A DNA stretch of 22,476 bases from a virus (taxonomy: Duplodnaviria > Heunggongvirae > Uroviricota > Caudoviricetes), in IMG/VR virus record IMGVR_UViG_2541047936_000005, one strand, 5' to 3'. Both the position numbers and the translations under genes were made by a program. Each line of letters begins with the position of its first letter. Position 1 is the stretch's first letter. The notes below the pieces were generated by a model. The model was given only the letters and a program-made list of their open reading frames with translations, did no database searches and was not told where the DNA came from. This document shows positions 13,339-16,801 of this stretch, in pieces.

Positions 13339-14691
<1,353 letters not shown>

Positions 14692-14741
14692 TCCCCACCT
14701 CAATCTCGATAACAAAAAAACAAACTATTTTCCGTTTAAAA

Positions 14742-14814
14742 ACAATGGAGTTTGTTTTTCACGCCCCTTTTTACAATATTTCTTGTTTACAACATACAAT
14801 CTTCCTTGTAATTT
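14742..14814 (+). promoter_or_regulatory. Left operator OL3-OL2-OL1 (434 type) overlapping promoter pL
   Basis: ACAA-N6-TTGT sites at 14742-14755, 14773-14786 and 14796-14809; -35 TTTACA (14786-14791) and -10 TAATTT (14809-14814) with 17-bp spacing; transcript start near 14821 (ATCAGCAGGACGCACTGACC as in the lambda pL leader). Confidence 0.8.
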
Positions 14815-14854: not shown

Positions 14855-14885
14855 GGCTCTTAAAAATTAAGCCCTGAAGAAGGGC
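14855..14885 (+). promoter_or_regulatory. nutL (boxA-like GGCTCTTAA and boxB GCCCTGAAGAAGGGC)
   Basis: boxB hairpin at 14871-14885; boxA-like sequence at 14855-14863. Confidence 0.8.
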
Positions 14886-15042
14886 AGCATTCAAAGCAGA
14901 AGGCTTTGGTGTGTGTGATACGAAACGAAGCATTGGCCGGAAGTGCGAATCCGGATTAGCTGCCAATGTGCCATTGCGGGGTGTTTTCGTTCAGGACTAC
15001 GACTCCCACACACAACCAAAGCTAACTGACAGGAGAATCCAG

Positions 15043-15366
15043 ATGGATGCACAAACACGCCGCCGCGAACGTCGCGCAGAGAAACAGGCTCAATGGAAAG
15101 CAGCAAATCCCCTGTTGGTTGGGGTAAGCGCTAAACCAGTTAACCGCCCTATTCTCTCGCTGAATCGCAAACCGAAATCACGAGTAGAAAGCGCACTGAA
15201 TCCGATAGACCTTACGGTGCTGGCTGAATACCACGAACAGATTGAAAGCAACCTGCAACGTATTGAGCGCAAGAATCATCGAGTTTGGTATAGCAAGCCA
15301 GGTGAGTTCGGTATAACTTGTCAAGGAAGACAAAAGGTTAAAGGGGAATCCATTCCATTGGCATGA
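15043..15366 (+). CDS. N: Antiterminator N (107 aa)
   Basis: MDAQTRRRERRAEKQAQWKAANPLLVGVSAKPVNRPILSLNRKPKSRVESALNPIDLTVLAEYH matches lambda N; the listed ORF starts upstream at a GTG. Confidence 0.95.
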   Translation: MDAQTRRRERRAEKQAQWKAANPLLVGVSAKPVNRPILSLNRKPKSRVESALNPIDLTVLAEYHEQIESNLQRIERKNHRVWYSKPGEFGITCQGRQKVKGESIPLA

Positions 15367-15374
15367 GGTACGTA

Positions 15375-16244
15375 ATGAAGAAGATTGATTACAAGTCCAT
15401 ACCAAAACCAATAGACTCAGCATCAGAGCGAAAAAAACACAAAAAAGAGGCTGAAAAATTAGCAAATTATATCAGTTTTATTAGAAACAATGCTCACGGC
15501 GATGGCGACAAGAAGTTGCTTTCAGATGCTCGGACCCAAGCGTTCGGTATACTTCGTAAGCAGATGCAATATCGTCTTCATCCTGGCTACATAATTGAAA
15601 TTCGCCCTACTGAAAGACAATTGTTCTTATTAAACTCTGTCTTTGACTTTGTAAACGTAGTTGGAGATCTTATCGACAGGTCTGTAGATAAGGATCCTGA
15701 TACAAATAGTTTTCTTCTAACAAATAAAGAATACTTATATGGTAAATTCGGTATAAACGGATGGCAAAAATATGTACGCTTCTTACGTGCATTCGTTGAT
15801 GCGTATAAAAATTCCGACATGATTTATACATATTTGCCTGGTGGTGATAATTGTACGCTTTCGGCAGACAATAGAATATTCATACCTGTACTTGGTCTTG
15901 GGCTGATTAATGCAGTAAATGAAAAAGATGTTATAATTGTTAAGCAGTGGCGAAAATATGAGGGATATAGATATCTGCCATGCTTTGATATATTAAAAAT
16001 ACAGAATAAATTCTATGTAAAAATTAAATATAAAGAAGATATTTTCTTCCTCAGAAAAAACATAGATCTTTTACAAGAACTTTCTGGTACAATAGATGTC
16101 ATCTTAGGTTCTAGGTTTATAAAAGAACTGAAAGAAAGCAGGTCTTTCTCTCGTGTAGAGATAAGCGAGTCAGAGTTATGGGGTATATCAAATAATCCTG
16201 TAAACCACGCTCACCAACGAAACCCAAACAAAAAGTGGTCATAA
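15375..16244 (+). CDS. Uncharacterised 289-aa protein in the ral/sieB position (pL operon accessory gene)
   Basis: ORF overlapping or abutting the N stop (ATG at 15363 or 15375, the latter with GAGG 6 nt upstream); AT-rich; Lys-rich N-terminus; no recognisable motif; lambda ral and sieB are absent. Confidence 0.55.
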   Translation: MKKIDYKSIPKPIDSASERKKHKKEAEKLANYISFIRNNAHGDGDKKLLSDARTQAFGILRKQMQYRLHPGYIIEIRPTERQLFLLNSVFDFVNVVGDLIDRSVDKDPDTNSFLLTNKEYLYGKFGINGWQKYVRFLRAFVDAYKNSDMIYTYLPGGDNCTLSADNRIFIPVLGLGLINAVNEKDVIIVKQWRKYEGYRYLPCFDILKIQNKFYVKIKYKEDIFFLRKNIDLLQELSGTIDVILGSRFIKELKESRSFSRVEISESELWGISNNPVNHAHQRNPNKKWS

Positions 16245-16386
16245 CCCGCTCAGGCGGATTTCATTTTCACGCAAACAACAGAATAAACACAGCGCTGTGT
16301 ATTCATTCCAACGAGTGAATACACGGAGCAATGTCGCTCGTAACTAAACAGGAGCCGACTTGTTCTGATTATTGGAAATCTTCTTT

Positions 16387-16413
16387 GCCCTCCAAGATGA
16401 GGGCGATTTTTTA
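16387..16413 (+). terminator. Rho-independent terminator upstream of ea10 (GCCCTC-CAAGAT-GAGGGC then T-tract)
   Basis: 6-bp GC stem followed by GATTTTTTA. Confidence 0.45.
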
Positions 16414-16432
16414 TCTGTGAGGATATGAACAG

Positions 16433-16801
16433 ATGTCAAACATCAAAAAATACATCATTGATTACGACTGGAAAGCATCAATAGAAATTGAAATCGACCA
16501 TGACGTAATGACAGAGGAAAAACTTCACCAGATTAATAATTTCTGGTCAGACTCTGAATACCGACTCAATAAACACGGCTCTGTATTAAATGCTGTATTA
16601 ATCATGCTGGCGCAACATGCTCTGCTTATAGCAATTTCAAGCGACTTAAATGCATATGGTGTTGTGTGTGAGTTCGACTGGAATGATGGAAATGGTCAGG
16701 AAGGATGGCCTCCAATGGATGGTAGTGAAGGAATAAGAATTACCGATATCGATACATCAGGAATATTTGATTCAGATGATATGACTATCAAGGCCGCCTG
16801 A
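16433..16801 (+). CDS. ea10: Ea10 (122 aa)
   Basis: Translation MSNIKKYIIDYDWKASIEIEIDHDVMTEEKLHQINNFWSD matches lambda Ea10; length and spacing to cIII as in lambda. Confidence 0.9.
   Translation: MSNIKKYIIDYDWKASIEIEIDHDVMTEEKLHQINNFWSDSEYRLNKHGSVLNAVLIMLAQHALLIAISSDLNAYGVVCEFDWNDGNGQEGWPPMDGSEGIRITDIDTSGIFDSDDMTIKAA

Follow-up and report, generated by a model that had tools for sequence, protein, structure and literature searches.

The transcription-arrest factor Nun of phage HK022 carries an arginine-rich helix that binds the boxB hairpin on the nascent nut RNA of a rival phage. Its C-terminal segment enters RNA polymerase and blocks translocation, and in the cryogenic electron microscopy structure of the Nun-elongation complex residues 87–109 alone are ordered and hold all known arrest determinants (PMC5386594). 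On entering the elongation complex this segment lies next to the upstream duplex and the RNA exit channel, and it then runs past the β′ zipper, lid and rudder into the hybrid/downstream-DNA pocket (PMC5386594). Removing the last 13 residues of Nun abolishes polymerase binding; N97, H98, H100, R102, K106, K107 and W108 contribute to arrest, N103 does not, and H93 and R94 touch upstream DNA, with R94A weakening binding (PMC5386594). Here we analyse a gene for a 289-residue protein that carries this arrest peptide on a different body, in a 22,476-nt stretch of tailed-phage DNA (IMG/VR record IMGVR_UViG_2541047936_000005, referred to throughout as the window). We read the protein, with a probability of roughly 0.6, as a Nun-type transcription-arrest factor in which the boxB-binding motif has been replaced by a TnpB-derived targeting domain.

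TnpB is the ancestor of Cas12, and its WED and REC domains hold the transposon-associated motif (TAM) duplex and part of the RNA scaffold. The 289-residue protein resembles ISDra2 TnpB (PDB IDs: 8H1J and 8BF8) and the miniature Cas12 proteins Cas12n and Cas12f in having a predicted WED barrel with an inserted REC bundle, in the same order. Unlike them, it has no RuvC domain, DED triad or zinc-finger/TNB domain, its locus has no omega-RNA region, transposon ends or TnpA, and it is not detected by the Pfam families PF12323, PF01385 and PF07282. Also among the closest known systems are TldR, a group of TnpB-like nuclease-dead repressors of which some are phage-encoded, and dCas12f-sigmaE, as exaptations of the TnpB/Cas12f lineage into bacterial transcription regulators, in temperate phages of Enterobacteriaceae. 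TldR retains the overall fold, with RuvC inactivated, and a guide RNA, whereas the 289-residue protein has less than half of the fold and no evident guide, and bears a peptide of the kind that enters polymerase.

Compared with Nun (PHROG 5632; 109–112 residues), the protein is much longer and lacks the arginine-rich boxB motif, its N-terminal helix not being significantly like the arginine-rich motifs (ARMs) of N or Nun. It also lacks the D-x-M-H-R-V motif that precedes the tail in Nun and includes H93 and R94, and its body is instead a predicted folded TnpB-like module with a helical hairpin. The copy of the gene in phage 434 further differs from nun in coexisting with lambda-type N and nut, the targets of canonical Nun. 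Because RuvC, zinc finger, guide RNA and transposon context are missing, the protein is neither TnpB nor TldR, and two defining features of Nun, the ARM and the pre-tail motif, are absent as well.

A literature search returned no paper that links TnpB with Nun or discusses the gene, and the 434 genome announcement is silent on it. What was already known is the GenBank product name of the 434 gene, 'Nun C-terminal peptide-containing protein', which notes the tail and nothing else. New in this work are the prediction of a TnpB-like fold, the evidence for selection on the tail throughout the family, the equivalence of the gene's position to that of nun, and the finding that the tail is used in a modular way.

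The C-terminal tail is identical to that of Nun

The gene and its tail lie in the window as follows.

15363–16244, + strand: open reading frame (ORF) of 293 codons, counted from the first ATG
15375–16244, + strand: coding sequence of the 289-residue protein (MKKIDYK...), with the stop codon at 16242–16244
16200–16241, + strand: residues 276–289, VNHAHQRNPNKKWS, identical to HK022 Nun residues 96–109, the polymerase-invading arrest peptide
16199–16311, + strand: 113-nt block (tail codons, stop codon, hairpin and about 65 nt downstream), 94.7% identical to the 3′ end and downstream sequence of nun in O276

As the Nun reference we used the translation from the HK022/lambda hybrid O276. The 14 identical residues include every one shown to contribute to arrest, and outside VNHAHQRNPNKKWS no similarity between the two proteins was found by BLASTP. 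The sequence-only reading of the window had recognised no motif in the gene; it overlooked this tail, which the 434 product name already records. In the PHROGs database the protein falls into an unannotated family, with a separate match between residues 274–293 of the 293-residue ORF and the end of a Nun-like termination factor family. Profile searches, which that reading had proposed, gave no family: scans of the protein against Pfam, NCBIfam and PADLOC returned no match, and a Pfam scan over all 12 family members returned a single chance match only.

The tail is shared by six lineages (434, L004, L036, L037, L038/L002 and L040) whose proteins are 36–68% identical overall. In all six it follows the consensus V-N-H-A-H-x-R-[ND]-[PH]-x-K-K-W-(S), in which all Nun arrest residues are invariant and the position of N103 varies. 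Synonymous (pS) and non-synonymous (pN) change, counted by the Nei–Gojobori method over the 14 tail codons and over the body, compares as follows.

Tail (14 codons): pS 0.34–1.14, mostly saturated; pN 0.00–0.15
Body: pS 0.76–0.95, saturated; pN 0.20–0.47

Non-synonymous change is thus about threefold lower in the tail than in the body; between L036 and L038 the 14 tail codons differ by eight synonymous changes and no non-synonymous one. Because the residues critical to Nun are invariant, N103 varies and pN is low despite mostly saturated pS, the tail is, as judged from these codon comparisons, a selected part of the protein and under purifying selection. At the level of DNA, the 94.7% identity of the 113-nt block to nun shows that exchange at this joint has occurred recently.

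Predicted fold of the body

The protein is basic overall (isoelectric point, pI, 9.5), and apart from the tail it divides into three parts.

Residues 1–69 (15375–15581, + strand): basic N-terminal extension (pI 10.1) of two predicted long helices, found in the phage clade only
Residues 70–220 (15582–16034, + strand): predicted TnpB/Cas12-like WED+REC module, with a strand at 72–77 (YIIEIRP), helices at 80–145 and strands at 152–217
Residues 221–275 (16035–16199, + strand): low-confidence linker with one predicted helix (232–258)
Residues 254–265: conserved acidic motif ESRSFSRVEISE, shared with a plasmid clade described below (ES.aYsRVDF)

The structure was modelled with AlphaFold2 from the 12-sequence family alignment. 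The predicted local distance difference test (pLDDT) score of the modelled block is mostly about 72–92 over residues 10–220, and the last 30 or so residues are disordered; as in Nun, the segment before the tail is disordered and acidic. A Foldseek search with the model, another check that had been proposed for this gene, returned ISDra2 TnpB as the top match with a probability of 0.99, a resemblance that is not visible from the letters alone. The matched part spans residues ~70–220 and comprises the strand YIIEIRP, a helical bundle and a β-barrel, an order which we take to be that of TnpB WED strand 1, REC and the WED barrel. The body is therefore predicted to adopt a WED+REC fold like the nucleic-acid-binding half of TnpB, of the TnpB/Cas12 lineage.

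We make no claim of homology at the level of sequence, because hhalign gave a weak collinear match only (E 0.024, probability 2%) against ISDra2 TnpB (100% identical in sequence to 8BF8_A) and a 93-sequence alignment of TnpB N-termini. Three WED elements are collinear in this match (residues 72–92 with TnpB 7–27, 168–180 with 133–145 and 211–222 with 164–175), and the weak motifs h-x-h-x-P-x-x-x-Q...L...F and I-x-I-P-x-L-G are common to both. The family profile had no match among PDB sequences at E ≤ 10.

A RuvC domain was sought and not found: there is no PF01385 match, and the protein ends about 70 residues past the WED barrel, with one helix and disorder after residue 220. Likewise there is no PF07282 match and no Cys/His cluster that would indicate a zinc finger or TNB domain.

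Position in the early-left operon and spread of the family

The gene lies in an early-left segment of 434-immunity type, oriented along pL transcription, in which the order is 434 cI, hex, pL/nutL, N, the 289-residue ORF, ea10, gam, bet and exo.

13658–14290: 434 cI
14215–14691: hex, in the rex slot (434 annotation)
14808–14813, + strand: pL −10 element, transferred from phage 434 (OL657226)
~14821, + strand: pL transcript start, transferred from phage 434 (OL657226)
14870–14886, + strand: nutL stem-loop, transferred from phage 434 (OL657226)
15044–15366, + strand: lambda-type N antiterminator gene, with the stop codon TGA at 15364–15366
15365–15369, + strand: Shine-Dalgarno sequence GAGGT, 5 nt before ATG 15375 and overlapping the N stop codon
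16245–16267, + strand: hairpin CCCGC-TCAG-GCGGA (16245–16258) followed by TTTCATTTT, directly 3′ of the stop codon
16385–16406, + strand: terminator-like hairpin with a T-run to 16416, upstream of ea10
16433–16801: ea10, followed by gam, bet and exo

Annotations were transferred from phage 434 by adding 10362 to the OL657226 position, over sequence that is 99.9% identical at this locus. Across the whole window only 73% can be aligned to phage 434, at 97.3% identity there, with positions 1–3014 and other segments falling outside, so the window is a 434-immunity relative and not 434 itself, and it is probably a prophage. The gene is 99.7% identical to CPT_434_48 of phage 434, and residue 230 is I in the window where the common allele has K. 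Phage 434 is a founding model phage, and the classical lambda imm434 hybrid does not carry the gene. The neighbouring hex gene, to which a role in repressor protection is ascribed, appears as a 158-residue ORF that begins upstream of the annotated start; a GenBank note calls the published start codon wrong. Between hex and oL an inverted repeat, AAACAAACT...AGTTTGTTT, with a short T-run occupies 14717–14762; it is a possible terminator for the pRM (immunity) transcript and would then silence the unit of N and the 289-residue gene in lysogens.

As the sequence-only reading had it, the ORF is AT-rich (34.6% G+C; window 44.7%, N 48.9%) and lies directly downstream of N. It is also real and intact, and diverged homologues retain the reading frame. 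The overlap that it described between the ORF start and the N stop codon exists for the first ATG (15363), whereas the start used is probably ATG 15375, past that stop codon, because GAGGT precedes it, phage 434 is annotated so and all homologues begin there; ATG 15363 is probably not used. Its suggestion of a cassette swap also stands: lambda-type phages match the window until the end of N and again from ~16273, covering the flanks and not the interior. The terminator that it placed upstream of ea10 corresponds to the hairpin at 16385–16406. The gene is not a decaying pseudogene, a possibility which that reading had raised, because of 22 near-identical copies in IMG/VR 20 are intact, full-length copies occur in 83 of 5426 complete E. 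coli genomes (at least 97.6% identity, always annotated as hypothetical) and the homologues remain in frame. Occasional copies are inactivated: in L039:4001–5202 the match is spread over about 1200 nt with a premature stop at codon 110, and in L035:4001–4866 a premature stop at codon 29 is consistent with a frameshift. In a 96-residue E. coli protein (P0008), residues 1–23 of Bet are fused to the C-terminal 73 residues of the 289-residue protein, as the product of a rearrangement or deletion.

Two further points of the sequence-only reading need revision. It had the gene depend on N antitermination; a pattern scan found no terminator-like site between pL and the gene, the first hairpins lying 3′ of it, and because of this we infer that the gene is on the immediate-early transcript together with N, so that N would probably be unneeded for its expression. 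A separate promoter before the gene was detected neither by a consensus scan, which is insensitive and also missed pL, nor in the annotation of the 434 record. The hairpin at 16245–16267 is degenerate both in the window and in nun, with GCGGA in the stem and CA interrupting the T-run, whereas all diverged relatives have in the same place a strong intrinsic terminator with a perfect GC stem, a run of seven or eight T residues and compensatory stem changes. The effective end of the 434 immediate-early transcript may be the 16385–16416 terminator and not this hairpin.

The second point concerns the slot. The gene had been assigned to that of ral and sieB, which are accessory and non-essential and occupy the same interval between N and ea10 in the early-left operon of lambda, yet it has no sequence or predicted structural relation to Ral or SieB and its predicted mechanism differs. 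The nun slot fits better. As with nun, the gene is either the first after pL/putL or directly follows N, and is then followed by a terminator. In five of the lineages (434, L004, L036, L037 and L040) it directly follows an N-type gene, and these N genes are of four types by their ARM (434/L004, L036, L037 and L040). L002 and L038 have no N; there a 290-residue version follows a cI-like repressor and a leader with HK022-type operators and putL. The leaders (L002:2840–3110 and L038:3703–3973) hold HK022-type pL operators and a putL about 95% identical to that of HK022, and the TnpB-like gene replaces nun at its exact position. Canonical nun, for its part, also follows a non-lambda N gene, at a distance of 3 nt, in E. 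coli prophages, and in all lineages of the family a terminator lies directly 3′ of the gene.

The family is old and rare: exhaustive searches turned up four clusters in 5.8 billion proteins and 13 representatives in 1.84 billion. The tail itself is more widespread. A scan of IMG/VR for the tail coding pattern gave at least 119 matches (loci L043–L156). Among the matches listed, 87 complete ORFs encode proteins of 83–123 residues with diverse basic, arginine-rich N-termini, 22 complete ORFs and one 41-residue fragment belong to the 289-residue family, one is spurious and the rest are cut by contig ends; no third tail-bearing architecture is found among them. Because the tail is attached to many short proteins with differing basic N-terminal motifs, comparison of these sequences suggests a whole set of Nun variants directed against different nut sites. 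By eye, the N-termini of several short tail proteins (L070, L046, L058, L059 and L106) resemble the motifs of lambda N (MDAQARRREKRKEKQEEW...), phage 21 and P22, and L106 holds two tail-bearing genes about 300 nt apart.

A plasmid clade (P0010–P0017; 213–314 residues, 18–27% identical) has the same TnpB-like body and lacks the N-terminal helices and the Nun tail. Its members are encoded on small plasmid-like contigs (L006–L011) and on Burkholderia conjugative plasmids (L013:4824–5768 and L014:4911–5693). They end in a different conserved peptide, ...EG(R/K)xVxGG(L/A)PxxGK(K/R)R (e.g. ...GGLPSLGKRRR), which possibly serves this module as a second effector peptide. Their neighbours are small unannotated genes, a 108-residue ORF adjoining on the small plasmids, and none of these neighbours has a Pfam match.

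We also looked for a guide or omega-like RNA. No non-coding flank is conserved across the lineages, in which the terminator hairpin is the sole conserved RNA structure, and no Rfam match was obtained for either of the homologue loci searched, L002 and L004. The leader of L002 was considered as a guide RNA and rejected, since its folding is unexceptional and it is the HK022 putL. Mimicry of the neighbouring N by the basic N-terminal helix, which would target the phage's own nut, was likewise rejected: cognate pairs are no more alike than shuffles (z −0.7 to 2.1).

Proposed mechanism, alternatives and significance

In the mechanism that we favour, the protein would be made with N from the first, immediate-early pL transcript, and its disordered C-terminal 14 residues would reach into the active-site cleft of E. 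coli RNA polymerase during elongation, in the way shown for HK022 Nun. The body would select which polymerases are arrested, a WED+REC-like module taking the place of the arginine-rich helix. Given that the tail enters next to the upstream duplex and the channel through which RNA leaves, a domain some 55 residues N-terminal to it would be placed against upstream duplex DNA or nascent RNA, where it could recognise a feature. All characterised cases use the segment that precedes the tail for addressing, which by analogy argues that the TnpB-like module addresses the tail. A more specific version, possible in our view but on balance doubtful, is that the module reads a defined feature, either a TAM-like motif in the duplex DNA that trails the polymerase or a structure in the nascent RNA, and delivers the Nun peptide to it.

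The phage's own transcription would be spared, either for want of the target or through a resistance of N- or put-modified polymerase to arrest of the Nun type. Modification-based self-immunity of this kind fits two observations: put-modified polymerase reads through Nun-dependent termination (PMC8632103), and lambda N passes through the hybrid cavity and also binds DNA upstream (PMC9378689). The likely role would be to compete with other phages or mobile elements, or to exclude them. The exclusion or anti-defence role that the sequence-only reading had drawn from position is in this respect plausible as exclusion or competition, and its overall interpretation is partly supported.

Several points weigh against the reading of the protein as a retargeted Nun. 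The family lacks the pre-tail motif D-x-M-x-[R/K]-V of ARM-type Nun, including H93 and R94; this motif is conserved in most ARM-type Nun variants, whereas the family has variable residues there (NNP, NSP, GQA, DKA or VSI). A DNA- or RNA-binding body domain might substitute for the missing upstream-DNA contact. The link to TnpB comes from predicted structures and shallow, 12-sequence alignments, with profile support that is not significant (hhalign probability 2%), and we know of no WED+REC module lacking RuvC that binds nucleic acid by itself. No target motif was identified for the protein, and our literature search found no published experiment on it. Finally, classical exclusion requires expression in the lysogen, which is not supported here, and phage 434 itself uses lambda-type N and nut; with no separate promoter evident, exclusion from a lysogen in the manner of HK022 Nun is not supported for 434.

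The strongest alternative, which we consider unlikely, is a general takeover of transcription, in which the tail arrests any unmodified complex, the body adds non-specific affinity for DNA or RNA and N- or put-modified complexes are spared. To the same degree of doubt, the gene would then be an immediate-early host shut-off or selfish-transcription device and not a sequence-targeted excluder. It would explain why the gene is always found directly after N or putL, both antitermination devices, and ahead of the first terminator, and it suits the basic character of the protein and the lack of any target motif or guide RNA found. Nun at high concentration arrests all complexes in vitro (PMC5386594), and put-modified polymerase resists Nun (PMC8632103). 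However, canonical nun in the same slot is sequence-targeted, lambdoid phages rely on the host polymerase throughout and are not known for host shut-off, and a conserved folded module of 150 residues exceeds the needs of unspecific affinity.

We give little credence to self-regulation, in which the protein would, instead of acting on rivals, arrest or terminate early transcription of the phage itself at defined sites, for instance to brake or time pL and pR transcripts or to compete with N. Although the tight linkage to several N types, whose gene ends abut or nearly so and might permit translational coupling, and the terminator immediately 3′ of the gene can be read in this way, L002 and L038 lack any N, the N-terminal basic helix is unlike the ARM of the neighbouring N, and both lambda and lambda imm434 thrive without the gene.

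It is just as improbable that the tail is an irrelevant passenger acquired by recombination, on a TnpB-like body that acts alone, for instance as a DNA-binding repressor, an anti-defence decoy or a Ral-like agent of restriction alleviation. The recent exchange with nun and the distant plasmid clade, in which the same body bears a different tail, speak for it, but the tail has been kept in six phage lineages through mostly saturated synonymous change with pN below that of the body, and its functional Nun residues are invariant where a position known to be dispensable varies.

Least probable of all is RNA-guided arrest, in which the module would bind a guide RNA that pairs with a DNA target and so bring the Nun tail to programmed sites: the predicted fold would derive from an RNA-guided family, of which the phage-encoded TldR proteins are RNA-guided transcription regulators, but the protein lacks the entire RuvC lobe, to which the heteroduplex channel and much of the surface that binds the scaffold belong, and the gene has no conserved non-coding flank: N or putL borders it upstream, and the sequence past the downstream terminator either differs entirely from lineage to lineage or also occurs in lambda, a phage without the gene.

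The reading of the protein as a Nun-type factor with a TnpB-derived targeting domain is open to direct test by existing Nun assays and Nun-resistant polymerase mutants. If it is true, this would be a third recruitment of the TnpB/Cas12 lineage into transcription control, after TldR and dCas12f-sigmaE, and the first in which the nuclease lobe has been wholly deleted. If, more specifically, the module does read a defined feature, the protein would be a natural, sequence-addressed brake on RNA polymerase, made from the remnant of an RNA-guided nuclease and a polymerase-invading peptide, and the plasmid relatives would be a sister system with the same addressing module and a second effector peptide. 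Should the module prove sequence-specific, its compact size (289 residues) would make it a natural tool for site-directed transcription arrest. Nun has long been treated as a textbook curiosity, one small protein that turns the lambda antitermination signal into a stop; the family described here, together with the survey of tail-bearing genes, suggests that its arrest peptide serves as an effector which can be moved between targeting modules, among them what appears to be a stripped-down TnpB relic.

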